Shown: positions 6,775 through 56,802, numbered from the stretch's first letter. The stretch is 64,000 nt of DNA from Gemmatimonadota bacterium (GCA_039592335.1 JBDHBX010000003.1:131056-195055); one strand, 5' to 3'. Made by a program: numbers and translations. The notes: a model not told the origin generated them from the sequence alone.

Positions 6775-6780
6775 GGCGAG

Positions 6781-6999: not shown

Positions 7000-7079
7000 C
7001 AAGCACTCCCAGGGTTTCCGAAGAGGCGGAAATATAAACGTGGCACGGACTTGGGGGCAAGCGGCCCCACGGAATTCGA

Positions 7080-15356: not shown

Positions 15357-17320
15357 GCGCGCTCCAGGACGACCGCGCCGGTGGCGTGGACGGTGCCGTG
15401 CCAGCCCGGCTCGATCCGAATCGTGCAGTCGATCACGTCGAGCATGAACGGTCCATCCACGACGGTCCCGGATCCGAGGGCGTCGAGCGGCGCGCGCCCA
15501 TCGCCGCCCGGCGGCTCCGGCGCGCCCACACGCTCGGCCAGCCGCACGTCGGCGCCCCGCCGGCTCGCGACCACGCGCAGGTTGACCAGCTCGACCGGAC
15601 GCGCCGCATCCGCGTGGCCGAACCGCTCGCGGTGCGTGTCGTGGAAGGCGGCGGCCGTATCATCGCCCGAAGCTCCCACGGGCACGGTGAGCTCATAGCC
15701 CTGCCCCGGGTAGCGGCAGTCGGCAAGGCGCAGCAGCTCCGCTCCCACGAGGGCGTCCCGTGCCTGGTCCTCCAGGTCGGTGAAGGCTGCCTGCGAGCGC
15801 TGAGCGTCGAGCTCGTGTGCGAGGGCATGCAGCGACGACGCGAACTCGAGCTTGTCCGGCGCCGAGGCCAGACCCAGTGCCGACAGGACCCCCGCGTGCG
15901 GTGGCACAAGCGCGCGCTCCATCCCCAGGCTGTCGGCCATGCGACAGGCAAACATGGGACCGGCTCCACCGAACGCGACCAGCGTCATGGAGCGAGGGTC
16001 GACGCCCCGCTCGACGCTCACGCGCCGGAGCGCCCGCACCATGGCGGCGTTGGCGACCTCGATGACGCCGTCCGCGCACCGCTCGAGGGAAAGTCCCGCC
16101 GCCTCCGCCACGTGTCCCACCGCATCTTCCGCCTTCGCCACATCGAGGCGCAGTCCGCCGGCCAACGGATGCGCGGCGTCGAGCCACCCCAGCACCGCGG
16201 CCGCGTCAGTCACGGTCGCTTCGGTCCCTCCGGTGCCGTAGCATGCCGGCCCGGGTATCGCACCCGCGCTGCGCGGTCCCACCCGCAATGCGCCACCTTC
16301 ATCCACCCATGCCACGCTGCCGCCGCCCGCCCCCACGGTCTCGATCAGTACGTGGGGCAGCGCCAACGGCACTCCTCCCACGGCCCCGGCGGCTTGCATC
16401 ATGGGCCGACCACCCAGCACGATGCTGGCGTCGGCGCTGGTGCCACCCATATCGAGCGTGAGAAGATCGTGCATCCCGAGCTGCGCACCGACGAGTCGCG
16501 CGCCCTCGACCCCACCGGCTGGACCCGAAAGCGCGAGCGCTGCCGCGCGCTCGCCCGCCTGGGCGACGCTCAGCGTCCCGCCGTTCGAGGCCATGATCCG
16601 CAGCTCCCCGATGCCGCGGTCCGTGGCGTCTGCGCCCATGCGGGCCAGATAGCCGCTCACCTTGGGACGGAGATACGCCTCGACCGTCGTGGTGCTGGTG
16701 CGCTCATACTCGCGAAACACCGGCAGCACCTCGCAACTGGCAGCGACGGGCGTGTCGGGGAGGGCTTGGCGCAGCGCGGCCGCGAGACGCCGCTCGTGCG
16801 TCGGGTCACGGAAGCTGAACAGGAGCGTCACGGCCACAGCATCGGGCCGGTGTCGCTCGACCTCGGCCACCACGCGTTCTACCTCGGCGTCGACCAACTC
16901 CCGCACCACACCCTCGGCCCCGACCCGCTCGTCGACCCCGACGACGTCGTCGCGCGCCGTGAGGGGCGGCGGGTGGTCACGCGAGAGATCGTAGAGGTGG
17001 GAGCGATCCTGCCGCCGGAGCCAGAGGAGGTCCTCGAAACCCGCCGTGGCAACGAGCACCACACGGCCACTGCTGCGCTCCAGCAGGGCGTTCGTGGCAA
17101 CGGTGGTGCCGTGAATCAGGGCCTGGGCCGCGGACTCCCCGGCCCGCAACCGGCTCACCTCGTCCCACACCTCGGCGGCAACGGTGCCGGGCGTCGATCT
17201 GACCTTGCCGACCGTGACATCGCCGTGGGATGAGAGCGCAACGACATCGGTGAACGTGCCACCGACATCGACGCCGAACCGTGCTACCGCCGACGCCACA
17301 GCGTGTACCCGACGAGGCAC
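15353..17320 (-). CDS. Hydantoinase A/oxoprolinase-family protein
   Basis: N-terminal FGVDVGGTFTDVV and central DMGGTSAD ATPase motifs. The start may instead be GTG 17299, because 17320 overlaps the lnt stop by 37 nt. Confidence 0.85.
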   Translation of the reverse strand: MPRRVHAVASAVARFGVDVGGTFTDVVALSSHGDVTVGKVRSTPGTVAAEVWDEVSRLRAGESAAQALIHGTTVATNALLERSSGRVVLVATAGFEDLLWLRRQDRSHLYDLSRDHPPPLTARDDVVGVDERVGAEGVVRELVDAEVERVVAEVERHRPDAVAVTLLFSFRDPTHERRLAAALRQALPDTPVAASCEVLPVFREYERTSTTTVEAYLRPKVSGYLARMGADATDRGIGELRIMASNGGTLSVAQAGERAAALALSGPAGGVEGARLVGAQLGMHDLLTLDMGGTSADASIVLGGRPMMQAAGAVGGVPLALPHVLIETVGAGGGSVAWVDEGGALRVGPRSAGAIPGPACYGTGGTEATVTDAAAVLGWLDAAHPLAGGLRLDVAKAEDAVGHVAEAAGLSLERCADGVIEVANAAMVRALRRVSVERGVDPRSMTLVAFGGAGPMFACRMADSLGMERALVPPHAGVLSALGLASAPDKLEFASSLHALAHELDAQRSQAAFTDLEDQARDALVGAELLRLADCRYPGQGYELTVPVGASGDDTAAAFHDTHRERFGHADAARPVELVNLRVVASRRGADVRLAERVGAPEPPGGDGRAPLDALGSGTVVDGPFMLDVIDCTIRIEPGWHGTVHATGAVVLERA

Positions 17321-18861
17321 ACCGTCGCCAGCAGGGACAGCGTCCCTACCCAGTCACCCAACCGGGCGTAGAGCGTCACCCCGTCGGTGGTGAGGATCTC
17401 GCGCGTCTCGAACGTGCGAACGTTGAGGGCGGTCCGCTGGTGCTCCCGCCCCAGGGGATCGACAAACTCCGAGATCCCCGAGTTGGCCGCCCTGGCAATG
17501 CCCACACGGTTCTCGATGGCGCGCATGACCAGGTGCGCGGCGTGCTGGTAGGGCCCAATGGTGCGGCCGAACCACGCGTCGTTCGTGATGTTGAGGAGGA
17601 ACTCCGCGCCGTTCCGCCGGTAGCCGCGCGCGAGGTTCTCGAACGCCGACTCGTAGCAGATCAGCGCCCCGAAACGCAGCACCGTGTCCGAGCCCCGCAG
17701 CCCGAGCTCGTACACCGGCAGCGCCGTGCCCGGTGTGAAGCCGCCGAAGAACCGCGAGTGGATCCAGCGCGGGCCGGCGATGGGCACGCGCTCCGTGATC
17801 GGCACCAGATACCGCTTGTGGTAGACGGGGTACCGGTCCGACAAGCCCCAGTCGTTGAACAGATACGCCGCGTTGTAGAACTCGACGCGACCCTCCTCCG
17901 TCTGCGCGAAGTCGAGAGCGCCGAGGAAGATCGAGGTCCGCGTGGCACCACCAAACTCCCTCACGTTCACCATCCATATCGGGTTCTGCCGGAAGTAACC
18001 CGGCACGGCGACCTCCGGCCACACGACCAGGTCGGGATCACGAGACCGCGCTTTCTCGAGCAGAGACTCATTCCCCCTCAGCGCCTCGGCGGTCAGGTGG
18101 AGCAGCCCGTTCACGATCGAGTCCTGCTGCGCCTGCTCCCACTTCTCCTCGTACCCGATGTTGGGCTGCACGACCGTCACCTTCCCCGCCGTCCGGAGAT
18201 CGACGGTGCGCTCGCGCACGACGCCGTACATCAGGGCCACCACGATGCCAATACCGACGCCGCCGGCGAGTACGCCGGCCTGCCGCCGCATGGCCCGGTG
18301 TCGCCAAGCGAGCGCGAGCGCGACGTTCGCGAGCACGAGGAGCCAGGTGACGCCCCGCGCGCCCACGATGTCGGCGAGCTGCACCACCGTGGGGTAGCCG
18401 GTGAGCGAGGTGCCCAGCCCCAGCCACGGGAAGCGGAAGTCACCCTGATGCCCCACGATCCACTCGAGCGCCGTCCACAGCAGCGGGAAAATGAGCAGCA
18501 CGGAGAGCCGCGTGGTCCGCATTACCCATCCGGTCACCGCGAACAGGACCGCACTGTAGAGCGCCAGGCCGATGACGGCGCCGGCGTATCCCAGGACGGA
18601 CAGCGGCGTGAAGTGCCACAGGGCAACGACCATCCAGTGGAGTAACAGACCGTTGGCCACCAGGCCGAACCAGAATCCCTGGGCCAGGTGCCGACGCACC
18701 GGCCGCGGGTCGTCGGCGCCTTCGAGGATCAGCCAGACGGCTGGGATGAGACAGAGAAACGAGGGGAGGAAGAGATGGAACGGCGGGTAGGCGGCGCAGG
18801 TGAGGAGGGCCCCACCAATCACCAGGCGCCAGTCCCCTGGCGGCAGCGCGAGCGCCTTCAC
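17284..18861 (-). CDS. lnt: Apolipoprotein N-acyltransferase
   Basis: Multi-TM N-terminal half plus a CN-hydrolase domain (VVWPE, ICYES). 525 aa. Confidence 0.9.
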   Translation of the reverse strand: MKALALPPGDWRLVIGGALLTCAAYPPFHLFLPSFLCLIPAVWLILEGADDPRPVRRHLAQGFWFGLVANGLLLHWMVVALWHFTPLSVLGYAGAVIGLALYSAVLFAVTGWVMRTTRLSVLLIFPLLWTALEWIVGHQGDFRFPWLGLGTSLTGYPTVVQLADIVGARGVTWLLVLANVALALAWRHRAMRRQAGVLAGGVGIGIVVALMYGVVRERTVDLRTAGKVTVVQPNIGYEEKWEQAQQDSIVNGLLHLTAEALRGNESLLEKARSRDPDLVVWPEVAVPGYFRQNPIWMVNVREFGGATRTSIFLGALDFAQTEEGRVEFYNAAYLFNDWGLSDRYPVYHKRYLVPITERVPIAGPRWIHSRFFGGFTPGTALPVYELGLRGSDTVLRFGALICYESAFENLARGYRRNGAEFLLNITNDAWFGRTIGPYQHAAHLVMRAIENRVGIARAANSGISEFVDPLGREHQRTALNVRTFETREILTTDGVTLYARLGDWVGTLSLLATVCLVGYTLWRRR

Positions 18862-18898
18862 AGGCCGACTTCGCAGCCGTCGGCCGCGGAGCGGTGGC

Positions 18899-19540
18899 TC
18901 ACGGACTCCCCTTACGAGGCAGACGATACGTCAGGCCGCCGCGCACCGATGCCGTCAGCAGCTCGGTCGTCGCCTCCCCGCGCGCGTCGGCCGTGAGCAC
19001 GAGCGATTTAGTGAGCCCGATCTCGAACCCGAGCGATCCGACGATGCCCACATCCACCATGTCCAGCGCCCGCTCCACGAAGGTCCCGTTGATCGCTTCG
19101 CCATCACCGTTGCGCAGATGCAACCCCAGACCCAGGCCCGTGTAGGGCCGCACGCGCCGCGCTGGCTCGAACAGGTAGTGGAAGTCGAGCGCGAGTCCGA
19201 AATCGGCCCAGCTGATCGTCCCCAAGTCGACCGCAACGGTGGGATCGTCGATGATGTCCTCGAGCTGGCGCTCGAACTCGTCGATCTCCTCCTGGCGGAA
19301 CTGGCCCTTGAAGTACGAAGCGCTGAGCAGCACTCGCACCTTGGGCGCGAAGTTGCCGAAGTCGATGCGCAGCGCACCGACGGGCTCGGTCGTCAGTCGA
19401 TTGGACCAGACCACACCGCCCTCGAGGCCGATGCCCGCGAGGCGAAGACCCTCATAGCTGAACTGATCCCAGAAGCCCTGGGCCCACACGGACCCCGGCA
19501 GGAGCAACATGGCGAGCCCGAGTCTAATACCAGCGCTCAA
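18899..19540 (-). CDS. Putative outer-membrane beta-barrel protein (hypothetical)
   Basis: Signal peptide ending VWAQG. Alternating hydrophobic strands and GLGLGLHL-type beta-barrel patterns. I recognised no specific family. Confidence 0.45.
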   Translation of the reverse strand: MSAGIRLGLAMLLLPGSVWAQGFWDQFSYEGLRLAGIGLEGGVVWSNRLTTEPVGALRIDFGNFAPKVRVLLSASYFKGQFRQEEIDEFERQLEDIIDDPTVAVDLGTISWADFGLALDFHYLFEPARRVRPYTGLGLGLHLRNGDGEAINGTFVERALDMVDVGIVGSLGFEIGLTKSLVLTADARGEATTELLTASVRGGLTYRLPRKGSP

Positions 19541-20747
19541 GAGTCGTTCCCGGGAAGTAGGTCGTCACGATCGTGTGCGCGTCCTGCCCGGCTCGCGCCC
19601 GGCCGACGGCTCCCCACTGGCACATCCCGACTCCGTGCCCCCACCCCGCGCCAGTTGCCGTGACGCGCTCGACTCGACCTTCACGCCGGTCGACGGCGAG
19701 CTGGAAGGCGCTGCTGCCCAGGGACCGCCCGTCCGGTCTGGTGAAGACGGCGCGAACGTCGGGACCGAACACGGGTATCTCACCGCGGCTCACCTCGATC
19801 CGCACTTCGGCAACCCTGCCCGACGGTCCCGTGCGCTGCACACGCACATCGCGCAACTCGTCGAGCATAGCGGTCTCCACACCGAGCCGTGAGGACACCG
19901 TTCGCCGTAATATACGCTCCAGCGTTGCCGCGTCCCACTCGACCGTCCAGCGGAAGTTGGGCGAGATATCGCAGTAGTGCCCGCCCGACCGCCGATCCGA
20001 CACGGGCGTCAGGTACGGCAGCCGCCGGCCGAAGCGGAACACCTCCTCGGGCGAGGCGGTGGAGTATCCGCAGGTCGAGTGGTAGAAGGTGCTGATAAGC
20101 TCCCCGCGGTAGGTGACCACCGTCCCCGAAGTCGAGCGTACGCCGGCCCACCCGCGATCGCTCTCGACCTCCACGCCCCCATACGCCTGATCCGTCACCG
20201 TCGCCCGGAGATCATAGCCTTCCGCCGCGAACCGGCCGCGGTTCTTGAGCGCGTAGGTCCGCGTCACGATAGCTTGGGCCTCGACTGCCGCCTGCTCGTT
20301 CGGGGCGCGTCGCCCCAGCTCGGCATTCACCACCCCAGCGACGTACGCCTCGAGCGACAGCTCGTTCACCGCGTTGAGGGCCCCATCGTGGACGAACACC
20401 TCGACGACCCCGCGGTAGGGCTTGCCGTTCACCTCTACGAACCGCGAGCGATCGAGGCTGACGAAGGTGATACGCTCGTACCGCCCGGCACCGGGTCCTG
20501 ACACCCGAATGGCGCGGCCGTCGGGAGCCACGCGCACCTCTGCGTCCGCAGAGACTCGGAAGGCCACGCTGCCGCTCACCACGCCGCCAACGGTTCCCTC
20601 CCCCGTGATGCGTACCTCGCTCGCACCTACCACCAGGCCGATGCGAACGTCGGGCTCGTCGGTCACGCCGGGCGAGGGAGTCGGCTTGCCGCACGCCGCG
20701 AGCAGCGTCGCGATCCCGACCCCGAGTAGCACCGAGGACGGCCTCAT
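19524..20747 (-). CDS. SpoIID/LytB-domain protein (amidase enhancer/lytic transglycosylase family)
   Basis: Conserved SpoIID blocks LEAYVAGVV..E, FYHSTCGYSTAS and GHGVGMCQWGA. Confidence 0.85.
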   Translation of the reverse strand: MRPSSVLLGVGIATLLAACGKPTPSPGVTDEPDVRIGLVVGASEVRITGEGTVGGVVSGSVAFRVSADAEVRVAPDGRAIRVSGPGAGRYERITFVSLDRSRFVEVNGKPYRGVVEVFVHDGALNAVNELSLEAYVAGVVNAELGRRAPNEQAAVEAQAIVTRTYALKNRGRFAAEGYDLRATVTDQAYGGVEVESDRGWAGVRSTSGTVVTYRGELISTFYHSTCGYSTASPEEVFRFGRRLPYLTPVSDRRSGGHYCDISPNFRWTVEWDAATLERILRRTVSSRLGVETAMLDELRDVRVQRTGPSGRVAEVRIEVSRGEIPVFGPDVRAVFTRPDGRSLGSSAFQLAVDRREGRVERVTATGAGWGHGVGMCQWGAVGRARAGQDAHTIVTTYFPGTTLERWY

Positions 20748-22069
20748 TCTCCCTCCGGCCTCGCCGTGGCGTGGAAGTCGTAGTCGACGTTGTCGTCGAG
20801 GGTGACGCGGAGAAGATCACCGGGCCGGGCCCAGCCACCCTGCGCCACAAAGGTCACCCCGTCCACATCGTCGGCCTGCCAGGGAGTGCGCCCCACGTGG
20901 GTCGCCCCCGCTTCGTCGGGGTCGGCGATGCGATCCACCAGCAGCGCAATCTCACGACCTACGTAGCGCCCGAGCCGCTCCTCGGAGATCGTCCGCTGCA
21001 GCTCCAGCAGCTCCTCCTGCCGCGCTCGCTTCACGTCGTCGGGCACGTCGTCGTCGAACTCGGCGGCGCGAGTGCCCTCCTGCTCGGAGTATGTGAACAC
21101 GCCGAGCCGCTCGAACGTCATCTCCTCGGCGAAATCCAACAGCGTCCTGAAGTCCGCGTCGGTCTCGCCCGGAAATCCTACGATCGTCGTGGTGCGGATC
21201 GTGATGTCGGGGATGCGCGACCGGAGCCGGGACACCTTCTCGCGAATCGAGTCGCGTCGCTCCGGACGGCGCATGCGCTCGAGCACCGAGTCCGATGCGT
21301 GCTGGATCGGGATGTCGAGGTAGGGCACGATGCGAGGCTCGCCGGCCATCAGCTCCACGAGCCGCTCGGTGAGACCCGCGGAGTACACGTAGAGCAGACG
21401 GAACCACGGCACGCTCGTCCCCTCCAGCAACGCCTCCAGGAGGTCCGGCAACTGGGGTCCGCCGCGCCCCAGATCACGACCGAAATGTCCCAAGTCCTGC
21501 GCCACCAGGTTGATCTCCTTCGCGCCCTGGGCCTCCAACTGGCGCGCCTCCCGCACCAGCCGCTCCACGGGCTCGGAGCGGTGCTTGCCCCGCATCAGCG
21601 GGATGGCACAGAAGGCGCAGCCGTGGTCGCACCCTTCGGAGATCTTGAGGTAGCGCACGTGCGGCGCGTCGCCGAGGTACTGGCGCACGCCGGGATGGCT
21701 CGCAGCCGGATCGTCGATCAGCCCCCGTTCCGCCAGTGCGGGCACGAGCGTGTGGAGGTCGTGGAACCCGAGGAGGAGATCCACGTCGGGCATCTCCTGT
21801 CGCAACTCGTCCTGGTAGCGTTGCACCAGGCAGCCGACGGCGACCACCGCCTTGACGTCGCCCGCCTGCTTCAGATCGGCGGCGTGCAGGATGGCCTCGA
21901 TCGATTCCCGCTTCGCGGCGTCGATGAAGCCGCACGTATTCACGAGCACGACATCGGCCGCACCCAGGTTCCCCACGACCTCGGCACCGTGTCCCACGAG
22001 GTCACCGACCAGACGCTCGGAGTCGACGGTCGCCTTGTCACAGCCGAGGGAGATGATGCCGAGTTTCAT
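20744..22069 (-). CDS. rimO: Ribosomal protein S12 methylthiotransferase (radical SAM MTTase)
   Basis: MKLGIISLGCDKATVDSE N-terminus. Radical-SAM CDHGCAFCAIP. TRAM-like C-terminus. ATG 22069 fits better than the listed start at 22117. Confidence 0.9.
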   Translation of the reverse strand: MKLGIISLGCDKATVDSERLVGDLVGHGAEVVGNLGAADVVLVNTCGFIDAAKRESIEAILHAADLKQAGDVKAVVAVGCLVQRYQDELRQEMPDVDLLLGFHDLHTLVPALAERGLIDDPAASHPGVRQYLGDAPHVRYLKISEGCDHGCAFCAIPLMRGKHRSEPVERLVREARQLEAQGAKEINLVAQDLGHFGRDLGRGGPQLPDLLEALLEGTSVPWFRLLYVYSAGLTERLVELMAGEPRIVPYLDIPIQHASDSVLERMRRPERRDSIREKVSRLRSRIPDITIRTTTIVGFPGETDADFRTLLDFAEEMTFERLGVFTYSEQEGTRAAEFDDDVPDDVKRARQEELLELQRTISEERLGRYVGREIALLVDRIADPDEAGATHVGRTPWQADDVDGVTFVAQGGWARPGDLLRVTLDDNVDYDFHATARPEGE

Positions 22070-22095
22070 CGAGACTGAATATAGGGGGGAATGGA

Positions 22096-22137
22096 AAACG
22101 GGGAACGGCGCGCCCATCCACTGTCCGTTCCCTGTTT
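22096..22137 (-). terminator. Intrinsic terminator downstream of the sigma-factor gene
   Basis: GGGGAACGG (22100-22108) pairs with CCGTTCCC (22125-22132) and is extended by A/T pairs. On the minus strand the stem is followed by CGUUUUCC. Confidence 0.6.
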
Positions 22138-22154
22138 CGAGCTTGCGCCTGCCG

Positions 22155-23012
22155 CTACGAGAGGAAGCTCTCCAGCGCCCTCGCCCGGCTCACGTGCCGC
22201 AGCCTGGCGAGGGCCTTCTCCTTGATCTGCCTTACCCGCTCGCGGGTGATGCCCATCATGCTGCCGATCTCCTCGAGCGTCATGGGCTCCTGTCCGTCGA
22301 GGCCGAAATAGAGCCGCAGGATCTTGGCTTCGCGCTCCTTGAGCGTGCTCAGCACCTCCTCGATGGAGTCCGACAACGCCCGCTCGAAAGTCTCCTGGTC
22401 GGGCCCGGCGTTCTGCGTGTCGGGCAGGTAGTCCAGCAGCTTGTTGTCTTCCCCGGGAGTGAGCGGCGCATCGAGGGAAAGGTGACTCTGGGAGATGGAC
22501 AGGGTCTTGGCGACCTCCTCCTCGGAGATGTCCATCCCCTCGGCAATCTCCTCCACCGTGGGCTCGCGTCCCAGTTCCTGTTGTAGCGCCGACGAGCGCT
22601 TGCCAATCCGGTGCAACGTGCCTGCGCGATTGAGCGGCACTCGAACGATACGGCTCTGCTCGGCGAGCGCCTGGAGAATCGCCTGTCGGATCCACCACAC
22701 GGCGTAGGAGATGAACTTGATACCCTTAGTCTCGTCGAACTTGTGGGCCGCCCGAATGAGACCGAGGTTGCCCTCATTGATGAGGTCGGAGAGGCTCACG
22801 CCCTGGTTCTGGTACTTCTTGGCGACCGAGACGACGAAGCGGAGGTTGCTTCGCACCAGCTTGTCGAGCGACTCCTCGTCGCTCTGCTTGATCTGCTTCG
22901 CCAGCTCGACCTCTTCCTCCCGGCTGATCAGCGGATACTGACTGATCTCCCGGAGGTACTGGTCCAGCGAGCCTTCGTCGACAGAAGTCTTCCGGGCGGG
23001 GCCGAGTCGCAT
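22155..23012 (-). CDS. RpoD/SigA-family sigma-70 factor (short, 285 aa; regions 1.2-4)
   Basis: YLREI..YPLISREEE, NLRFVVSVAKKY, GNLGLIRAAHKFD, ISYAVWWIRQAI and a region 4 HTH LEEIGSMMGITRERVRQI. GGAGGAA SD upstream of ATG 23012. Confidence 0.9.
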   Translation of the reverse strand: MRLGPARKTSVDEGSLDQYLREISQYPLISREEEVELAKQIKQSDEESLDKLVRSNLRFVVSVAKKYQNQGVSLSDLINEGNLGLIRAAHKFDETKGIKFISYAVWWIRQAILQALAEQSRIVRVPLNRAGTLHRIGKRSSALQQELGREPTVEEIAEGMDISEEEVAKTLSISQSHLSLDAPLTPGEDNKLLDYLPDTQNAGPDQETFERALSDSIEEVLSTLKEREAKILRLYFGLDGQEPMTLEEIGSMMGITRERVRQIKEKALARLRHVSRARALESFLS

Positions 23013-49817: not shown

Positions 49818-51266
49818 CTAGTTGGCGCCTACCGCGCTGGCGGCATTGAGACGGCCCTTGCCATAGTAGGGGTCGTTCCCCTTCTTGCCGAGGTCGTCCG
49901 CGGTTCGTTGGATGATGGTCTTGATGCGACCGGGCCTCCTGCCAACGTCCTCAACGAGTAGGCTCGCCACGCCGGAAACGTGCGGCGCGGCCATGGAAGT
50001 GCCACTCGCCCCCACAACCCAAGTGGGCGAGGACCAACAGCCAATCACCAAGCTCGTCTGTGAGCACGCCGCCCAAACCCAGCCAGCGTCGTTGGTTATC
50101 GCATCCCCGCCGGGCGCGGCAACACTGATCGCGGAGTTCCCAAAGTTCGTATACGGGGCGATGGCGTCGATTCCGATCCAAGGGCCAGCGTAGCCAGCGC
50201 CGGCTTCCGGGGCGGTAGCCGATACACAGATCGTGTTGGGTACATCGCAGTAGGTCGCGAAAGCATTGCCGTTATGATCCAGATCCCAAGCTGCGTTGCC
50301 TGCGGATACGACAACCGTTACTCCCCTGTTGTTTGCGTAGTTGAATACCCTGTTGATGAAGCCAACGAACCATCCGTTGTGCGCCTTCGTGAACCCACCG
50401 CCGAGGCTCATGTTGATGACGTCGGCACCGTTGTCCACCGCGTGAAGCACGCCGTCTATGACTGCACTGAACGGGCAGCTAACATAAACCACACCTATGG
50501 CAAGAGAGTCTGGATCGTACCCGCAGACTTTCACGCCGATGAGAGTCGTCTGGGTCGTGACGCCAGCCGCGACATACGAATTGCTCACTGCCGTGGCTGC
50601 CACGTGAGTGCCGTGGAAGTACAGATCCGTCACGTAGTCGCGACCCGCAAAGTAGAGATCGGTCAAGTAATCATCGAACGGCATAAACGAAACGGATCGT
50701 GACAGATCCACGCGCCCCTCAAGATCGGCGTGCAGATAGTCAATGCCGGTATCGAGAATCGCGACAGTAACATCCGAGGAGCCCGTCCTCTGCGCACCCC
50801 AAACATCGTCTGCTTGAATCGCCCGCATGTTCCACTGCCACAGATAGAAGTCTGCAGTTGTCGGATCGCCGGGACTCATTACTGCGTCGGCTTCAACGGC
50901 CTCGTCATTCACGATCGGATTGAGCTCAAATGCATTATCCTCGTACAGCTTTCTGACGTACTTCTTCCTACCGAGCGCACTGGCGGCGGTCTCGTCCAGC
51001 CCACTGACCGCCGCGACGCCAATGTCATGCGAAAAGACCACGCTGCCGCCCAGCCTCTCGACATCGGCGGTGAACCCGGCGGGGACGCCCTTTCTCCTGA
51101 ACATGATCAAGTGCCGGTCACTGATTTCGAAATCCCCGGTACCGACCACGGAGAAGTCCGGCTGCTCGATCGGCGCTTCCGCCGGCCCATCCGCGCACGC
51201 AAACGCAAACACCGCCAGCGCAGCCACGGCCGTCAGCCGCAACCCAATTCGTGATGCAGTGCTCAT
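49818..51266 (-). CDS. S8 (subtilisin-family) serine peptidase, probable lipoprotein with I9-like propeptide
   Basis: Catalytic Asp (VAILDTGID), His (HGTHVAAT) and Ser (SGTSMAAPHVSG). Lipobox-like VFAFAC. GGAGG SD upstream of ATG 51266. GC content is markedly lower than in the neighbouring genes. Confidence 0.9.
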   Translation of the reverse strand: MSTASRIGLRLTAVAALAVFAFACADGPAEAPIEQPDFSVVGTGDFEISDRHLIMFRRKGVPAGFTADVERLGGSVVFSHDIGVAAVSGLDETAASALGRKKYVRKLYEDNAFELNPIVNDEAVEADAVMSPGDPTTADFYLWQWNMRAIQADDVWGAQRTGSSDVTVAILDTGIDYLHADLEGRVDLSRSVSFMPFDDYLTDLYFAGRDYVTDLYFHGTHVAATAVSNSYVAAGVTTQTTLIGVKVCGYDPDSLAIGVVYVSCPFSAVIDGVLHAVDNGADVINMSLGGGFTKAHNGWFVGFINRVFNYANNRGVTVVVSAGNAAWDLDHNGNAFATYCDVPNTICVSATAPEAGAGYAGPWIGIDAIAPYTNFGNSAISVAAPGGDAITNDAGWVWAACSQTSLVIGCWSSPTWVVGASGTSMAAPHVSGVASLLVEDVGRRPGRIKTIIQRTADDLGKKGNDPYYGKGRLNAASAVGAN

Positions 51267-51363
51267 GTAGTTACCTCCATCGAGAGGGGTGACAAGGAAC
51301 CACGCCGATTCACGCCGGCGCCTCCTCCGTCGGCTCGTCACGCTACAATCCCAAATACAGAAA

Positions 51364-51392
51364 AGGCGTGCGGCCAAACGGCCGACACGCCT
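51364..51392 (-). terminator. Orphan intrinsic terminator (no upstream CDS on its strand)
   Basis: AGGCGTGCGGCC-aaac-GGCCGaCACGCCT. On the minus strand it is followed by UUUUCUGUAUUUGG. It lies about 100 nt upstream of the S8 start. Confidence 0.6.
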
Positions 51393-51669
51393 GTGTCACT
51401 CGTAATACCAGTTGGGCGGCACACACACACGCGCTGCCCGGCTGCCGTAGTCATACGCCAGGTGGCACCCACAAAGCGTGTGAATCCCAATACCCATGCA
51501 CTAACCCGTCCCGAGAGGCCTGCGGAGGGCGCAGCCACGGCCTCAACCCAGTCTCCTCGCGAAGATACCGGGGGGACGAGCGCCCGCAAGGAGCCGGCGG
51601 GCTCACTGCCCAGGCCTGGCGACCGGCCTGCTTCCAGTCCAGAATTGGCTCTATTAGACCCCGAGTCAG

Positions 51670-52278
51670 ATGGGAGGGGACCGGGTCGTGACACGACAGA
51701 CGCCGAAGCAGTCCCGCTTACACTTCCACCCCCTCACCCCTGCCCGCTGGGCCGATTTCGAGCAGCTGTTCGGCGAGCGCGGGGCCTGCGGGGGCTGCTG
51801 GTGCATGTGGTGGCGGCTCAAGCGCTCGGAGTTCGAGAAGCGAAAGGGCGCCGGCAACAAGCGGGCGATGAAGGCGATCGTGCGGAAGGGCGACGTCCCA
51901 GGAATAATCGCGTACGCGGGGAAGCAACCGGTCGGCTGGTGCGCCGTCGCCCCCCGCGAGAACTACGGCACGCTGGAGCGCTCCCGCATCCTCAAGCCGG
52001 TGGACGACCACCCGGTCTGGTCGGTGGTCTGCTTCTTCGTGGAGAAGGCCCACCGCGGTACCGGCGTATCGGTGGAGCTGCTGCGCGCCGCGGTCGCCCA
52101 CGCCAAGCGGCACGGGGCCCGGATTGTAGAGGGCTACCCCGTGGAGCCGAAGCAGGACCGCATGCCCGACGCCTTCGCCTGGTTCGGCCTAGCCTCGGCC
52201 TTCGAGCGGGCCGGCTTCGAGGAGGTGGCGCGGCGGTCGCCCACCCGTCCCATCATGCGGTTACACATCAAGAAGTGA
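51670..52278 (+). CDS. GNAT-family N-acetyltransferase (CGGCWCMWWR-motif subgroup)
   Basis: FEQLFGERGACGGCWCMWWR N-terminal motif and acetyl-CoA region HRGTGVSVELLRAAVAHAK. Confidence 0.75.
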   Translation: MGGDRVVTRQTPKQSRLHFHPLTPARWADFEQLFGERGACGGCWCMWWRLKRSEFEKRKGAGNKRAMKAIVRKGDVPGIIAYAGKQPVGWCAVAPRENYGTLERSRILKPVDDHPVWSVVCFFVEKAHRGTGVSVELLRAAVAHAKRHGARIVEGYPVEPKQDRMPDAFAWFGLASAFERAGFEEVARRSPTRPIMRLHIKK

Positions 52279-52291
52279 TGGCTCACTTACC

Positions 52292-52981
52292 GTGACACGC
52301 ACCGCTCGTGACTACTACGCCGAGTTCAGCACCGGGTACGCCGAGAAGATCCGGCAGCTCGTGCCGCGGTACGACGAGATGCTGGAGACAATCCTGGACC
52401 TCCTGCAGCTGGCCCTTCCCCGCGCTGTCCTGGATATCGGCGCCGGCACCGGCAACGTGTCGGACCAGGTGCTCAGGGGGTTCCCGGAAGCCCGCGTGAC
52501 GGCCCTCGATGCTTCGCCCGAGATGCTGCAGCAGGCGCGCACGCTGCTGGCACCCCACGGGACGCGCGTCACCGTCGTTCGGCACGACATCGCGGGCTAT
52601 GCGCCAGAGCGCTCCTTCGACGCCGTGTTCTCGAACCTGGTGCTGCACAACCTGCCCCCCGACACGAGGCGGGAGACGCTCGGCGCCATCCGGCGCTGGC
52701 TCAACCCCGGCGGCGGCGTCTTCATCTGGGGCGAGATGATCATGCATCCCGATCCGGCGGTGCAGCAGCACTTCGCCCGGCAACGCGCCGAGCACGCCCT
52801 CGCCGCGGGCTGCGCGCAGGACTTCGTGGACTGGAACTTCGAGAAGGAAAGCAGGCAGGATCATCCCTGGACCGCGGCGCAGACGCTCGAGGAGCTCGCC
52901 GCGGCCGGATTCGAGAACCCCGAGGTCGTGTGGGCGCACGATGCCTTCGCGGTCTTCTTCGCAGCTGTGAACGAGCCATGA
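52292..52981 (+). CDS. Class I SAM-dependent methyltransferase
   Basis: VLDIGAGTGNVS (motif I), ALDASPEM, and FDAVFSNLVLHNL. GTG start. Confidence 0.75.
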   Translation: MTRTARDYYAEFSTGYAEKIRQLVPRYDEMLETILDLLQLALPRAVLDIGAGTGNVSDQVLRGFPEARVTALDASPEMLQQARTLLAPHGTRVTVVRHDIAGYAPERSFDAVFSNLVLHNLPPDTRRETLGAIRRWLNPGGGVFIWGEMIMHPDPAVQQHFARQRAEHALAAGCAQDFVDWNFEKESRQDHPWTAAQTLEELAAAGFENPEVVWAHDAFAVFFAAVNEP

Positions 52982-54423
52982 CCACCATATCCGACATCCA
53001 CATGACCCCTGACCAGTTCCGCCGCGCCGGACACGCCGTAGTGGACTGGGTGGCGCAATACATGGAGCAGGTGGAGCAGTACCCCGTACTCTCCCAGGTC
53101 AAACCCGGTGAGATCCGCGGGCAGCTCCCCGACACCGCGCCCCAGCAGGGCGAGCCGCTGGAGGCGGTGCTACACGACCTGAACGAGGTAATCCTGCCGG
53201 GCATCACACACTGGCAGTCGCCCAACTTCTACGCGTTCTTCCCTGCCAACGCGTCGGGCCCGGCCATTCTGGGCGACCTGGTGTCCTCGGGTCTCGGCGT
53301 GCAGGGAATGGCGTGGGCCACGAGCCCGGCGTGCACCGAGCTGGAGACGCACGTGCTGGACTGGCTGGTGGACATGCTCGCCCTGCCCGAGTCGTTCAAG
53401 TCGACCGGCGCGGGCGGCGGCGTCATTCAGGACACGGCCTCCAGCGCCTCGCTCTGCGCGCTCTTGGCCGCGCGGGAGCGGGCGACGATCGGCCGCGCCA
53501 ACGCCGAGGGAGTGACGCGGACGCTGACAGCCTACATATCGAGCCAGGGACACTCGTCAATCACCAAGGCGGCGGGCATCGCCGGCGTCGGGCGCGACCA
53601 CCTGCGCCTGATCGACGTGGATGAGACCTATGCGATGCGGCCGGACGCGCTGGAGCGGGCGATCACCCAGGACCGCGAGGCCGGTCACCTGCCCTTCTTC
53701 GTGGCGGCGACCGTCGGCACGACCCCGTCCACCGCGATGGATCCGCTGCAGCCGATCGGTGAGATCTGCCGGCGCCACGGCCTCTGGCTCCACACGGACG
53801 CCGCCCTGGCCGGGACGGCCGCCCTCTGCCCCGAGTTCCGCTGGATCCACGACGGGCTGGAGCTGGCCGACAGCTACTGCTTCAACCCGCACAAGTGGAT
53901 GCTCACCAACTTCGACTGCGACGCCTTCTACGTGACCGATCGTAGCGCGCTGATCGACGCTCTGAGCATCCTGCCCGAGTACCTGCGCACGAAGTCCTCG
54001 GAGTCGGGCGCAGTGATCGACTACCGCGACTGGCACGTGCCGCTGGGTCGGCGCTTCCGGGCCCTCAAGCTGTGGTTCGTGATCAGGCACTACGGCGTGG
54101 AGGGCTTGCAGCTCCACGTGCGCGAGCACGTGAAGCTCGCCCAGAAGTTCGCGGCATGGATCGAGGCGGACGACCGCTTCCAGCTCGCCGCGCCCACTCC
54201 GCTCAATCTCGTATGCTTCCGCCACGTGGGTGGGGACGAGGTGAACCAGCGCCTGATGGACGAGCTGAACGCGTCGGGAAGGCTCTACCTGTCACACGCC
54301 AGGTTGGACGACCGGCTGGTGCTGCGCCTGGCCATCGGCGCCGCGGGCACGCGGCGGCGCCACGTAGAGCGGACCTGGGAGCAGATTCGCGAGACGGCGG
54401 ACGCGATCGTGCGCCGAGCATAG
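52978..54423 (+). CDS. Pyridoxal-dependent aromatic-L-amino-acid/tyrosine decarboxylase (group II)
   Basis: ILPGITHWQSPNFYAFFPAN and PLP-Lys motif FNPHKWMLTNFDC. ATGA overlap with the upstream methyltransferase. Confidence 0.9.
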   Translation: MTTISDIHMTPDQFRRAGHAVVDWVAQYMEQVEQYPVLSQVKPGEIRGQLPDTAPQQGEPLEAVLHDLNEVILPGITHWQSPNFYAFFPANASGPAILGDLVSSGLGVQGMAWATSPACTELETHVLDWLVDMLALPESFKSTGAGGGVIQDTASSASLCALLAARERATIGRANAEGVTRTLTAYISSQGHSSITKAAGIAGVGRDHLRLIDVDETYAMRPDALERAITQDREAGHLPFFVAATVGTTPSTAMDPLQPIGEICRRHGLWLHTDAALAGTAALCPEFRWIHDGLELADSYCFNPHKWMLTNFDCDAFYVTDRSALIDALSILPEYLRTKSSESGAVIDYRDWHVPLGRRFRALKLWFVIRHYGVEGLQLHVREHVKLAQKFAAWIEADDRFQLAAPTPLNLVCFRHVGGDEVNQRLMDELNASGRLYLSHARLDDRLVLRLAIGAAGTRRRHVERTWEQIRETADAIVRRA

Positions 54424-54450
54424 CGCGAGGCAGGAGGATCGAAAGGGAGC

Positions 54451-55065
54451 ATGGGCCGCAAGACACACTGGGAGCGCGTCTTCGTGACGCAGTCGCCGGA
54501 CGAGGTGGGCTGGTTTCAGCCGCGGCCGACTCTGTCGCTGCAACTCATGGACTCAGCCGGCGTGCCGCGCGACGCCGGTATCATCGACGTTGGCGCCGGC
54601 GCCTCCACACTGGTGGACGAGCTGCTCGAGCGCGGCTGCGCTGACGTCAGTGTGCTGGACGTGTCGAGCTCAGGGATGCAGCACATCAAGCAGCGGCTGG
54701 GCGAGCGGGCCGAGCAGGTGCAGTGGATCGAAGCCGACGTCACCGGATTCCACCCCGAGCGACGGTGGGACCTGTGGCACGACCGCGCCGTGCTGCATTT
54801 CCTCACCGATCCATCGGACCGCAAGGGCTACCGCCGCGCGCTGGAGGAGGGGGTGGTGCCCGGCGGGCACGTCATCATCGCGACGTTCGGCCTCGAGGGA
54901 CCCACGCGGTGTAGCGGACTGGAGGTGCGGCGATACAGTCCCGCCATGCTGTCCGCCGAGCTGGGCGATGCCTTCGAGCTGCGCGAAGCCCGCGGCGAGG
55001 ATCACCTCACCCCCACGGGCGTCGTGCAGCCGTTCGTCTTCTGTCTCTTCCGCCGGCACGGGTAG
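54451..55065 (+). CDS. Class I SAM-dependent methyltransferase (second, unrelated in sequence to 52292-52981)
   Basis: IIDVGAGASTLVDELL (motif I), VLDVSSSG, and WHDRAVLHFL. Confidence 0.75.
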   Translation: MGRKTHWERVFVTQSPDEVGWFQPRPTLSLQLMDSAGVPRDAGIIDVGAGASTLVDELLERGCADVSVLDVSSSGMQHIKQRLGERAEQVQWIEADVTGFHPERRWDLWHDRAVLHFLTDPSDRKGYRRALEEGVVPGGHVIIATFGLEGPTRCSGLEVRRYSPAMLSAELGDAFELREARGEDHLTPTGVVQPFVFCLFRRHG

Positions 55066-55123
55066 CGGCAAACCCAGGCGCATCCGCTGGCGGCCCCGTC
55101 GGTGGCACGTCATTATCAGCGCT

Positions 55124-55618
55124 ATGCCCGTGACCATCCGCCCCATGACCCCCGACGACTGGGAGGCGGTCCGCGCCATCTACCAGGAAGGCATTGCCAC
55201 GGGGATCGCCACGCTGGAGACCGAGCCGCCTGACTGGGAGCAGTGGGACCAGACGCACAAGCCCGAGTGCCGGCTGGTCGCTGAGGATGATGGACGGGTC
55301 GTGGCGTGGGCGGCCCTCACCTCGGTGTCCCACCGTCCCTGCTACCGCGGCGTGGCCGATGAGACGATCTACGTGGCCGACGACGCGCAGGGTCGCGGGA
55401 TCGGCCGGATCCTCATACAGCAGCTGGTCGAGCAATCGGAGCGCGCGGAGTACTGGACCCTGCAGGCCGCCATCTTCCCCCAGAACGAGGCGAGCGTCGC
55501 GCTACACGAGGCCTGTGGCTTCCGGACGGTGGGCGTGCGGCAACGCATCGGCGAACGAGATGGGAAGTTCCACGACGTTCTCCTGATGGAGCGCCGCAGT
55601 CTCGTCGTAGGGCGATGA
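55124..55618 (+). CDS. GNAT acetyltransferase of the phosphinothricin/L-amino-acid N-acetyltransferase (PAT/MnaT) type
   Basis: IRPMTPDDWEAVRAIYQEGIATGIATLETEPP..W and QGRGIGRILIQQL. 164 aa. Confidence 0.8.
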   Translation: MPVTIRPMTPDDWEAVRAIYQEGIATGIATLETEPPDWEQWDQTHKPECRLVAEDDGRVVAWAALTSVSHRPCYRGVADETIYVADDAQGRGIGRILIQQLVEQSERAEYWTLQAAIFPQNEASVALHEACGFRTVGVRQRIGERDGKFHDVLLMERRSLVVGR

Positions 55619-56181
55619 AGGCCCGCTCGTATTCCCACGTCGTGGGGTTCGACGACGCGCCGTTCGCGCGCGAGCACCGGGGCGATGTGCCCGTGGTGGG
55701 CGCCGTGTTCGCCGGCCTCCGCCTGGAGGGCGTGCTCAGCGGCAAGGTGCGGCGCGACGGCGCCAACGCGGCCCGCAACCTCGCCGCCCTCGTGAGCGGA
55801 TCGAAGTACGCCCCGCAACTCCAACTGGTGCTACTCCAGGGCATCGCGCTGGCGGGGTTCAACGTCGTGGACCTGCACGACCTGCATGAGCGGCTCAACG
55901 TCCCGGTGATGGTCGTGGCCCGCAAGCAGCCTCGGCTACACAAGGTGCGGCGCGCTCTGCTGCTCTTGCCGGGTGGCGAGCGCAAATGGCAGATCATTGA
56001 GCAGCTGGGGCCGCCCGAGCCGTTGGCCGGCGTCCACGTGCAGCGGGTGGGCATCCCCAGACGGGACGCCGAGCGGGTGATCCGGCGGCTCGCCGTGCAC
56101 GGCAGCATTCCCGAGCCGTTGCGCGCGGCCCACCTCATCGCGGGCGGCCTCACGGCCGGTCAGAGTCGGGGACGCACCTAA
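55615..56181 (+). CDS. DUF99 (endonuclease-V-like, mostly archaeal) family protein
   Basis: HVVGFDDAPF....VVGAV..G.R.EGVL...V..DG.....L and LVLLQGIALAGFNVVD. ATGA overlap with the PAT gene. The family call is from memory. Confidence 0.65.
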   Translation: MKARSYSHVVGFDDAPFAREHRGDVPVVGAVFAGLRLEGVLSGKVRRDGANAARNLAALVSGSKYAPQLQLVLLQGIALAGFNVVDLHDLHERLNVPVMVVARKQPRLHKVRRALLLLPGGERKWQIIEQLGPPEPLAGVHVQRVGIPRRDAERVIRRLAVHGSIPEPLRAAHLIAGGLTAGQSRGRT

Positions 56182-56205
56182 GCACGAAACACGAGGAGCC
56201 ACACG

Positions 56206-56306
56206 ATGCAGTGGGAATACAAGATGCTCTCGATGAAGACCGGGAGCTTCGTCGGCGGGAAATTGGACGACGCGACGTGATCGCGGTGTTCAAGCGGCAA
56301 CGCTAG
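56206..56306 (+). pseudogene. Decayed DUF4177-like gene (internal deletion plus frameshift)
   Basis: GAGGAG SD, then MQWEYKMLSMKTGSFVGGKLDDAT-stop (24 aa). The +2 frame immediately continues VIAVFKRQR-stop. These match the N- and C-terminal ends of about 60-aa DUF4177 proteins, with the middle missing. Confidence 0.45.
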
Positions 56307-56358
56307 CGCCGACCCGTTAGTATCCGAACCGACTGACGAACCCGAACGAGGAGCCGAC

Positions 56359-56802
56359 ATGCATCAGGCGATCCTGCTGCTGCACGTGCTTGGCGCCACC
56401 ATCTGGACGGGCGGCCATCTGGTCCTGGCCATCACCGTGCTGCCGCGCGCCCTGCGCGCAAAGGATCCCTCGATCGTGGAGCAGTTCGAAGGGGGCTACG
56501 AGAAGCTCGGGATGCCGGCGCTCGTGCTCCAGCTGCTCACTGGCCTGTGGCTCGCCCACCGGCTCCTGCCCGACCCGGGGGCGTGGTTTGCCTTCGGCTC
56601 GCCGGCGGCCGCCAACATCTTCGCCAAGCTGTGCCTGCTCGTGCTCACGCTCGCACTGGCACTCCACGCCCGGTTGCGTGTCATTCCCCGCCTCAACGCA
56701 GAGCGGCTCCCGACCCTCGCGGTACACGTCGTTCTCGTCACGATTCTGTCGGTGCTGTTCGTGGTAGTGGGCGTCGGCTTCCGAACGGGCGGGATCCTGT
56801 AG
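56359..56802 (+). CDS. CopD-like integral membrane protein
   Basis: Four TM helices. LLHVLGATIWTGGHLVL resembles the CopD/YcnJ C-terminal domain. GAGGAG SD. Confidence 0.6.
   Translation: MHQAILLLHVLGATIWTGGHLVLAITVLPRALRAKDPSIVEQFEGGYEKLGMPALVLQLLTGLWLAHRLLPDPGAWFAFGSPAAANIFAKLCLLVLTLALALHARLRVIPRLNAERLPTLAVHVVLVTILSVLFVVVGVGFRTGGIL

Follow-up and report, generated by a model that had tools for sequence, protein, structure and literature searches.

The six co-oriented genes at 51670–56181 of the window (the whole 64,000-nucleotide stretch of DNA analysed here) probably do not constitute one pathway, but rather a series of small-enzyme genes that function independently on a Gemmatimonadota (Gemmatimonadaceae-like) chromosome. 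This reading starts from gene identities, catalytic residues and a pattern of gene presence and absence across genomes, all observed directly. The central gene product, an aromatic-L-amino-acid decarboxylase (AADC), would convert an aromatic L-amino acid to the arylalkylamine and CO2 by way of the Schiff-base lysine K306 and the loop tyrosine Y335, and would act on its own, its gene being one of a syntenic series that codes for small, unrelated enzymes. Around it, three units can be proposed. Two SAM methyltransferase genes, MT1 and MT2, appear to have travelled with AADC inside one Gemmatimonadota clade and would be the only candidates for functional coupling; the acetyltransferase gene GNAT1 would be a recent addition, confined to the closest relatives; and a second acetyltransferase gene, of the PAT/ArsN1 type, together with Endo_dU would form a detoxification/DNA-repair-type pair belonging to the CopD–DUF1207–sortilin backbone. 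We infer that the genes are adjacent mostly because their order was inherited in a densely packed genome, and not because they share a pathway. As only MT1 and MT2 stay beside AADC, and this in one Gemmatimonadota lineage, a dedicated pathway to a modified neurotransmitter-like amine is a weakly supported possibility.

Gene content and packing of the array

All six genes lie on the + strand. GNAT1 (51670..52278, 202 aa) encodes a generic GNAT acetyltransferase (PF00583, E 1.4e-8) and is followed by MT1 (52292..52981, 229 aa), a class I SAM methyltransferase of the MM_2633/BelI/CysG-like group (Methyltransf_25, 1.3e-22). Next come AADC, a group II PLP-dependent enzyme (52978..54423, 481 aa from its ATG; PF00282, Pyridoxal_deC, E 1.4e-119), and MT2 (54451..55065, 204 aa), a small class I SAM methyltransferase of a NodS-like family (Methyltransf_25, 2.9e-8; NodS, 1.4e-4). 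The array ends with the PAT/ArsN1-type GNAT (55124..55618, 164 aa; NCBIfam ArsN1 family A 150 bits, PAT 72 bits) and Endo_dU (55615..56181, 188 aa), an endonuclease-family protein of the DUF99/UPF0215 group (PF01949, E 1.7e-53). The Pfam and NCBIfam matches agree with the enzyme classes assigned in an earlier sequence-only reading of this DNA, and the reading frames and gaps are as it had described them. NCBI/JGI gene calls already contain all six proteins exactly, and GC3 is of coding type (0.87–0.91) in every one of the six ORFs.

The intergenic gaps are, in order, 13, -4, 27, 58 and -4 nt. The first overlap is an ATGA shared by the MT1 stop and the AADC start, which bears out the proposed start-stop coupling of the decarboxylase to a class I methyltransferase, and the second is a 4 nt overlap between the genes for the PAT-type GNAT and Endo_dU. 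A consensus scan, itself weak for this phylum, gave neither a sigma-70-like promoter nor a + strand terminator-like site inside 51200–56500, and none of the genes between 48498 and 57754 encodes a hydroxylase, an enzyme whose absence from the cluster had been noted earlier. The array had also been called compact, yet co-orientation applies to 39 of the 50 adjacent gene pairs in the whole window, same-strand gaps have a median of 59 nt (20 of 39 measuring 60 nt or less), and further tight runs of five to seven genes occur at 3870–7002 and 13830–23012. Dense packing of co-oriented genes is usual in the window, and the compactness of the six genes is not above this background.

The decarboxylase and its orthologues

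The longest AADC ORF begins with a GTG at 52930; the ATG form (52978) was preferred because homologues are 473–482 aa long and cover 97–100% of it. The Pyridoxal_deC match spans profile positions 1–373 of 375, and the protein carries the motifs HWQSPNFYAFFP and NPHKW. It matches eukaryote-type AADCs (human and pig DOPA decarboxylase, plant TDC/TyDC; PF00282) over their full length, its best solved relatives being plant and animal AADC/TyrDC enzymes (E 1e-151 to 1e-139), among them AtPAAS (6eei, E 1e-151) and human DDC (3rbf, E 6e-142). K306, in the NPHK motif that holds the PLP-lysine, H192 and D274 align with K303, H192 and D271 of DDC; the Schiff-base lysine and the pyridine-N-binding aspartate are invariant in 88 of 88 orthologues, and the PLP-stacking histidine is found in 87. 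Y335 corresponds to the loop Y332 of DDC, where AtPAAS has Phe, which points to a decarboxylase and not an aldehyde synthase, and this tyrosine is present in 84 of the 88; an equivalent of DDC G354 is also found. The typing as an AADC is upheld by the catalytic lysine, histidine and loop tyrosine. There are differences from DDC: at two pocket positions Q109 and M111 replace I101 and F103, without exception in the 88 bacterial orthologues compared, and the position of DDC T82 is occupied by Ala, Ser or Gly. More than 8000 homologues exist, and the best 120 are all at least 69% identical. AADC is predicted to be a bona fide PLP-dependent aromatic-L-amino-acid decarboxylase, from a bacterial family that is very widespread and conserved to an unusual degree, with a substrate that can be given only as presumably aromatic. 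A literature search found no characterised member of this bacterial clade.

Eighty AADC orthologue loci from GTDB species genomes (67–83% identical, about ten phyla) were compared, and 79 contained none of the five neighbours; the sole exception, L001 (83% AADC identity), also has the flanking CopD and DUF1207 genes in common with the window. The bacterial family is normally encoded without a fixed partner. When the 109 immediate neighbours at 58 other AADC loci were scanned against Pfam, 122 different families were obtained, and no methyltransferase or acetyltransferase family was among the 25 listed with at least two members each. The sole methyltransferase gene at these loci lies on the opposite strand in L073 and encodes the tRNA enzyme CmoA. 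The full six-gene set recurs in L001 and L083. L081, which has the closest AADC found (88%), lacks GNAT1, MT1 and MT2 and keeps the PAT-type GNAT, Endo_dU, CopD and sortilin genes; L165/166 and L176 (73–74%) have MT1–AADC–MT2 and lack any GNAT as well as Endo_dU, with an esterase gene in their place; and L164 has AADC without the window's neighbour set. With L082 also incomplete, the co-conservation of the six genes on which the sequence-only reading had staked its pathway does not hold.

The methyltransferases and a possible methylated amine

MT1–AADC–MT2 is kept in the window, L001, L082, L083, L165–167 and L176, staying contiguous, with short spacings, in no fewer than six distinct genomes while the surrounding genes are replaced. 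The MT1–AADC and AADC–MT2 spacings are -4 and 27 nt in the window, -4 and 9 nt in L082 and -1 and 3 nt in L165, the overlap in L082 again being ATGA. In L176 a third, TehB-like methyltransferase gene is inserted between MT1 and AADC, and a 49% homologue of it lies one gene from AADC in L164, in the quite different context of TehB, DNA-alkylation repair, DinB_2, rhodanese and beta-lactamase-family genes. In 21 Terriglobia loci, the gene directly upstream of AADC, and co-oriented with it, encodes a class I methyltransferase of another kind. These recurrences are a hint that methyltransferases and AADC may cooperate in some lineages.

It is conceivable, though we think it rather unlikely, that MT1–AADC–MT2 (52292–55065) is a true operon, in which an arylalkylamine of the tryptamine, phenethylamine or tyramine type is subsequently N- or O-methylated by one or both methyltransferases, perhaps stepwise, with the GNATs and Endo_dU as bystanders. 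The short spacings argue for this, as do the lack of a terminator-like site inside the block, the persistence of the trio over an AADC identity range of 100% to 73% despite turnover of flanking genes, and the additional TehB-like gene; the unrelated Terriglobia methyltransferase lends some support to a methylated-amine module. However, every trio-bearing genome shares an outer frame, with GT20 upstream and CopD, DUF1207 and sortilin downstream, and common descent can therefore explain the adjacency. Moreover, L081 retains AADC without either methyltransferase, and no methyltransferase neighbour recurs in about 58 AADC loci from other phyla. The coupling of methyltransferase and decarboxylase is kept in one Gemmatimonadota clade, in the same frame, and lost in L081. 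Since the core is retained in that clade together with its flanking synteny, the methylated-amine half of the pathway first proposed survives as a hypothesis, and its N-acetyl (melatonin-like) half is unsupported; the logic of decarboxylase plus methyltransferase is the only part with any comparative support.

The similarity of the methyltransferases to known enzymes does little to favour an amine substrate. Among solved proteins, the carboxyl O-methyltransferases BelI/CysG (E 3e-21) and Methanosarcina MM_2633 come closest to MT1, with full-length similarity (E 3e-21 to 5e-15), and the nearest characterised relatives methylate carboxylates, not amines. MT1 His119 aligns with the first residue of the BelI/CysG-type metal-binding motif, but H-H in CysG is H-N in MT1, and MT1 is not located in a beta-lactone cluster; the resemblance is low, and transfer of substrate is therefore unsafe. 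MT1 has 129 matches, every named one from Gemmatimonadota. MT2 has 4199 homologues, those listed being mostly 52–60% identical and spread across phyla, and comes from a widespread NodS-like family. Its predicted structure (pLDDT 94) has Ecm18, Rv0560c, toxoflavin N-MT and NodS as best Foldseek matches, at 13–20% identity, with TehB and halide methyltransferases also among the best, and these fold matches of the model are best regarded as non-specific. MT1 and MT2 had been called unrelated, yet 109 aa of their SAM-binding cores align at 33% identity (E 2e-11), and they are related in part.

Homologues of MT1 (51%) occur in unrelated contexts, not adjacent to AADC, in two Gemmatimonadota (L172 and L173), and homologues of MT2 (55–59%) occur without an adjacent AADC in Dyella subtropica, another Gemmatimonadetes MAG and a third genome. 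The AADC-linked copies are 49–50% (MT1) and 57–62% (MT2) identical to the window proteins; that unlinked homologues are as similar as linked ones counts for AADC acting independently.

Plant and fungal routes to N-methylated arylalkylamines (hordenine, DMT, psilocybin) follow a logic of decarboxylase plus SAM methyltransferase, which MT1–AADC–MT2 shares by analogy only, and in domain, solved-structure and fold comparisons neither MT1 nor MT2 was seen to be related in sequence to INMT/PNMT-type or PsiM-type enzymes. It is nevertheless interesting to speculate, at somewhat longer odds than for the operon as such, that a Gemmatimonadota-specific MT1–AADC–MT2, sometimes with the TehB-like methyltransferase, makes N-methylated arylalkylamines, possibly di- or tri-methylated in steps and hordenine-, DMT- or candicine-like, and that Terriglobia paired a different methyltransferase with AADC independently. 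If true, soil bacteria would have a route to methylated biogenic amines that has not been described in bacteria before.

Acetyltransferases, Endo_dU and the downstream backbone

GNAT1 gave no specific NCBIfam match and has one weak solved relative (1q2y, E 2e-4). It occurs in L001, L082 and L083, is absent from L081, L165/166 and L176, and adjoins MT1 only in the nearest relatives (AADC at least 83% identical). The PAT-type GNAT matches solved phosphinothricin N-acetyltransferases over its full length, these making up almost all of its top-scoring solved relatives (E 4e-23), yet it stays below the NCBIfam equivalog cut-offs (150.1 against 170 bits for ArsN1 family A, 72 against 300 bits for PAT); in known members of the PAT/ArsN1/MddA family the acetyl group goes to the alpha-amino group of glutamate analogues and not to arylalkylamines. 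Endo_dU matches PF01949 over its full length with 181 bits against a gathering cut-off of 32.7, and has AF_1433 (2qh9, E 6e-28) as a solved relative. It occurs in L001, L081 and L083 and was lost in L082, and both it and the PAT-type GNAT are absent from L165/166 and L176. An opposite-strand YgaP-like gene separates the PAT-type GNAT from the AADC/MT2 side in L082 and L081. The PAT-type GNAT and Endo_dU are a separate pair, outside the AADC core.

There is a slim chance that the region is a loose stress and detoxification neighbourhood, where separate xenobiotics or kinds of damage would be dealt with by the small-molecule methyltransferases, the acetyltransferases, the dU endonuclease and CopD, with AADC as an unrelated resident. 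The PAT/ArsN1-type GNAT is a member of a resistance family, the MT2 fold matches include the toxin-detoxifying Rv0560c as well as TehB and halide methyltransferases, CopD adjoins the region and the AADC of L164 lies among genes of this kind; but family names are all that the detoxification functions are drawn from, a shared regulator is lacking, and relatives differ in gene content.

Least credible of all, and very improbable, is a single six-gene pathway in which an aromatic amino acid is decarboxylated and the amine N-acetylated and methylated: co-orientation and short gaps throughout, the presence of all enzyme classes needed for N-acetyl or N-methyl arylalkylamines and the complete sets in L001 and L083 speak for it, but the set is found only in relatives with at least 83% AADC identity and shared wider synteny, has been disrupted in L081 and L082 through loss of genes and an opposite-strand insertion, is absent at 73–74% AADC identity, and includes an acetyltransferase of the phosphinothricin/methionine-sulfoximine/arsinothricin type and an Endo_dU without a plausible role in an amine pathway. 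Decarboxylase, GNAT and SAM methyltransferase classes stand side by side here as in the melatonin/N-acetylserotonin pathway (AADC, SNAT/AANAT and ASMT/COMT). Unlike that pathway, the array has no hydroxylase, no ASMT/COMT-type or AANAT-type signature was found, GNAT1 has only generic matches and the second acetyltransferase is of the PAT type, both methyltransferases are short, single-domain proteins lacking the dimerisation domain of ASMT/COMT-type enzymes, and the genes are not co-conserved.

Returning to the preferred reading of independently functioning genes, the CopD-family membrane protein gene (56359..56802, + strand; PF05425, E 3e-12) is the first of a conserved downstream backbone of CopD, DUF1207 and sortilin/BNR genes. 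CopD lies downstream in L001, L081, L082, L083, L165/166 and L176, and with this backbone conserved the whole region is therefore syntenic in this lineage. Between Endo_dU and CopD, at 56206..56289 on the + strand, lies the remnant of a DUF4177 gene, detected by tblastn with the DUF4177 protein of L081 as query (28 of 63 residues aligned, 61% identity, E 9e-9); the gene is intact (63–69 aa) at the same position in L081, L082 and L083.

Packing of the six genes

The six genes of the block at 51670–56181, all on the + strand, occupy exactly the positions proposed in the sequence-only reading, and the gaps between them (13, −4, 27, 58 and −4 nt) are as it claimed. They encode a GNAT acetyltransferase (GNAT1; 51670–52278, 202 aa), a methyltransferase (MT1; 52292–52981, 229 aa), an aromatic-L-amino-acid decarboxylase (AADC; 52978–54423, 481 aa), a second methyltransferase (MT2; 54451–55065, 204 aa), a phosphinothricin-acetyltransferase-type GNAT (PAT-GNAT; 55124–55618, 164 aa) and Endo_dU (formerly DUF99/UPF0215; 55615–56181, 188 aa; PF01949, E 1.7e-53). 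Third-position GC is of the coding type in each (0.87–0.91), and the exact proteins are already included in the NCBI/JGI gene calls; all six are new, automatically annotated members of known families. The longest AADC ORF starts at GTG 52930; the form starting at ATG 52978, which gives an ATGA overlap with MT1, is covered to 97–100% by homologues of 473–482 aa, and the closest of these relatives are named as Gemmatimonadota or Gemmatimonadaceae.

The compactness of the block is not special within the window. A GC3-guided gene call gave 51 genes, with 39 of the 50 adjacent pairs co-oriented, a median same-strand gap of 59 nt and 20 of the 39 same-strand gaps no longer than 60 nt, and similarly tight runs of 5–7 genes are found at 3870–7002 and 13830–23012. 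Moreover, the co-oriented array extends beyond the block, upstream to GT20 and then MFS (gap 54 nt), and downstream from Endo_dU to CopD, DUF1207 and sortilin (gaps 177, 100 and 59 nt). A + strand scan inside the block for promoter and terminator consensus sequences, uninformative for this phylum, found none.

Two features of the surroundings vary among relatives. An S8 subtilase gene (49818–51377, − strand) lies between the MFS gene and GNAT1, in the stretch of lowest GC in the window (50001–52000; 0.618 versus about 0.68); it is missing in L083, whose MFS gene directly adjoins GNAT1, and has three paralogues in L082. Its appearance is that of an insertion or expansion that varies between genomes. 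A DUF4177 remnant of about 24–28 codons (56206–56289) corresponds to a gene that is intact at this place in L081, L082 and L083, a sign of the recent decay of a gene lying between Endo_dU and CopD.

Conservation of the neighbourhood

The block had been read as an arylalkylamine-modifying pathway combining decarboxylation, N-acetylation and methylation, but its genes are not conserved together, an outcome that the sequence-only reading had itself named as refuting: the neighbours of AADC are absent from nearly all orthologous loci, and among relatives the block splits in three. Scanning the GTDB species, each represented by a single genome, gave at least 586 relatives of AADC, and the best 80 loci (67–83% identity) were taken, from Gemmatimonadota, Acidobacteriota/Terriglobia, Planctomycetota, Chloroflexota, Gammaproteobacteria, Verrucomicrobiota, Nitrospinota, Krumholzibacteriia and others. 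When ten window proteins were compared by tblastn with these loci (±8 kb), the five neighbours of AADC were recovered in only one locus of the 80, L001, a Gemmatimonadaceae MAG with 83% AADC identity; CopD and DUF1207 are also common to L001 and the window, and L001 is no more than a close relative with shared synteny. An iterative GNAT profile, with 8 matches, was too insensitive, and a Pfam scan of immediate neighbours was used instead. In the 58 loci left after L001 and 21 Terriglobia loci were set aside, 109 immediate neighbours matched 122 Pfam families, the commonest being ABC_tran (7 members) and TPR, and no methyltransferase or acetyltransferase family was among the 25 neighbour families listed with at least two members each. 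The one methyltransferase detected beside AADC in these loci, in L073, was rejected as support for a link, as it is the tRNA enzyme CmoA (235 bits versus a cut-off of 193) encoded on the opposite strand. AADC is thus without a fixed partner in most lineages.

Closer relatives show how the block divides. The order in L083 (AADC 86% identical) is GT20, MFS, GNAT1, MT1, AADC, MT2, PAT-GNAT, Endo_dU, DUF4177 and CopD; MT1 of this genome (4082–4678) is apparently truncated and has no Pfam match, and gene decay was considered and rejected because the X residues mark an assembly gap. In L082 (87%) GT20 is followed by three S8 proteases (− strand), GNAT1, MT1, AADC, MT2, a YgaP-like gene (− strand), PAT-GNAT, DUF4177, CopD and sortilin, Endo_dU having been lost. 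The closest relative found, L081 (88%), has two PPDK_N genes (− strand), AADC, a YgaP-like gene (− strand), PAT-GNAT, Endo_dU, DUF4177, CopD and sortilin, and is without GNAT1, MT1 and MT2. More distantly, L165/L166 (74%) carry GT20, creatininase, an unknown gene (− strand), MT1, AADC, MT2, esterase, CopD, DUF1207 and sortilin, with a 1-nt MT1/AADC overlap, a 3-nt AADC–MT2 gap, no GNAT and no Endo_dU; L176 (73%) has GT20, MT1, a 162-aa TehB-like methyltransferase, AADC, MT2, esterase, CopD, DUF1207 and sortilin; and L164 (74%) presents a different context, with a TehB-like methyltransferase, NAGPA, AADC, an unknown gene and DinB_2. GNAT1 is thus restricted to the subclade with at least 83% AADC identity. 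PAT-GNAT and Endo_dU form a separate pair, which persists where the methyltransferases are gone. In two genomes an opposite-strand gene lies between this pair and the AADC/MT2 side, and in the 73–74% clade the esterase takes its place.

The most probable reading, and one that we favour with reasonable though not strong confidence, is that AADC would be a stand-alone aromatic amino-acid decarboxylase lying among unrelated small enzymes in a tightly packed, syntenic run. The N-acetylation part of the proposed pathway has essentially no support, GNAT1 being a recent neighbour and the PAT-GNAT family acting on glutamate analogues. GNAT1 itself gave generic GNAT matches only (PF00583, E 1.4e-8) and one weak solved relative, and its single-sequence structure prediction (mean pLDDT 33) was unusable; PAT-GNAT is of the phosphinothricin-N-acetyltransferase/ArsN1 type, nearly all of its top-scoring solved relatives being PATs, and scores 150 bits against the NCBIfam ArsN1 family A cut-off of 170. 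Endo_dU is unrelated. For now the result is mainly of negative value: in a genome this dense and high in GC, co-orientation and short gaps are not enough to mark out a pathway, and neither the acetyltransferases nor the DUF99 gene should be counted within one.

The methyltransferase–decarboxylase link

We rank second, and consider rather unlikely, the reading in which MT1, AADC and MT2 form a three-gene module giving methylated amines. Among relatives, MT1–AADC–MT2 is the sole sub-block retained over 73–100% AADC identity, its genes staying side by side with short gaps as the surroundings reshuffle, yet it is missing in L081. Other methyltransferases also occur beside AADC. A TehB-like third enzyme is inserted exactly at the MT1/AADC junction in L176 (5065–5553), and a 49% homologue (4433–5041) lies one gene from AADC in the otherwise different context of L164. 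In 21 Terriglobia loci (L005, L008, L009, L014, L020, L024, L031, L032, L034, L037–L040, L043, L048, L049, L051, L054, L057, L061 and L067) a co-oriented methyltransferase lies directly upstream of AADC; no similarity to MT1 or MT2 could be detected in this Acidobacteriota protein (255 aa, Methyltransf_11), whose ORF ends 18–155 nt away (median 88 nt). However, the independent events number at most three or four, one of them (the CmoA gene in L073) being clearly fortuitous, and since wider synteny is also conserved in both lineages, common descent is a sufficient explanation for the adjacency. The TehB-like protein of L176 is about 40 aa shorter than that of L164 and may be decaying.

Nor do the methyltransferase families point to a dedicated partner. 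That of MT2 is large (4199 matches at E ≤ 1e-10, mostly 52–60% identical beyond close relatives among the matches listed), and three homologues (55–59%), from Dyella subtropica, another Gemmatimonadetes MAG and a third genome, have unrelated surroundings that include no AADC. That of MT1 is small (129 matches, all named ones from Gemmatimonadota), and a complete Gemmatimonadota chromosome of 4.7 Mb and Gemmatimonas sp. SM23_52-like contigs both carry 51% homologues with no AADC next to them. The copies linked to AADC in L165/L176 (MT1 49–50%, MT2 57–62%) are no closer to the window's proteins than these unlinked ones, so nothing indicates a subfamily specialised for AADC. In metagenomes, a scan for MT1 found distant class I methyltransferases only (≤45% over fragments, 23–28% over most of the length), none with AADC nearby, a result uninformative on orthologues.

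MT1 belongs to the class I SAM methyltransferases (Methyltransf_25, E 1.3e-22). Closest to it among solved proteins are two carboxyl O-methyltransferases, BelI (E 3e-21) and CysG (about 2e-19; a further chain at 4e-20 is a point variant of CysG), and Methanosarcina MM_2633. In BelI and CysG a His-His-Asp metal site serves to methylate alkylmalates at the C1 carboxylate (PMC11408123), whereas the aligned MT1 positions for His-His are His-Asn. MT2 is a small class I enzyme (Methyltransf_25, 2.9e-8; NodS match weak); the two belong to different families but are not wholly unrelated, sharing 33% identity over the SAM-binding core. The predicted MT2 model is confident (pLDDT 94), and with it Foldseek gave over 1300 matches to class I methyltransferases, with 13–20% identity, including Ecm18, Rv0560c, toxoflavin N-MT, METTL6, MtfA, halide MTs and NodS; because these mix N-, S-, O- and halide-methylating enzymes, the substrate is not inferable from the fold. 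Residues strongly conserved in the MT2 family outside the SAM motif, among them W109-H110-D111-R112, H116-F117, C154-S155 and H185/T187/P188, and identity above 50% between Gemmatimonadota and Gammaproteobacteria, suggest a single conserved substrate. Literature searches found no known bacterial cluster of AADC with a methyltransferase, and to our knowledge little is known of the genetics of methylated arylalkylamine chemistry in bacteria. If functional, MT1–AADC–MT2 would be a concrete candidate, easily cloned at 2.8 kb, for how bacteria make methylated compounds of the tryptamine, tyramine or phenethylamine type.

The decarboxylase and its clade

The assignment of AADC to the aromatic group II PLP decarboxylases was borne out by a full-length match to PF00282 (E 1.4e-119) and by its best solved relatives, Arabidopsis PAAS, human and pig DOPA decarboxylase (DDC) and plant TDC/TyDC (E 1e-151 to 1e-139). 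In alignment, equivalents of human DDC K303 (NPHK), H192, D271, the catalytic-loop Y332 and G354 are all retained, the Y332 position being Phe in AtPAAS, an aldehyde synthase. As the DDC catalytic residues including the loop Tyr are kept, AADC is probably a true aromatic-type decarboxylase.

More than 8000 homologues were found at E ≤ 1e-30, the best 120 all at least 69% identical. The bacterial AADC clade (88 sequences, about ten phyla) has a median pairwise identity of 72%, a minimum of 62% and 102 invariant positions. The protein encoded in the window shares 74% identity with another Gemmatimonadota clade and 70–72% with proteins of Gammaproteobacteria, Planctomycetota and Chloroflexota. 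The equivalent of DDC Gly354 (Gly357) is invariant, whereas Ile101/Phe103 of the DOPA decarboxylase pocket are replaced in all 88 sequences by Gln109/Met111. This strikingly conserved clade is a better object for follow-up than the cluster, its conservation across about ten phyla being coupled with an altered, invariant substrate pocket. Literature searches found no characterised member of the clade and no paper on it in Gemmatimonadota. One member comes from a MAG labelled Bathyarchaeia (L064). In plant and insect enzymes, replacement of the loop Tyr by Phe converts a decarboxylase to an aldehyde synthase; Phe replaces this Tyr (residue 335 of the window AADC) in L056, L060, L065 and L080, and in L075 the PLP-stacking His (residue 192) is replaced by Asn.
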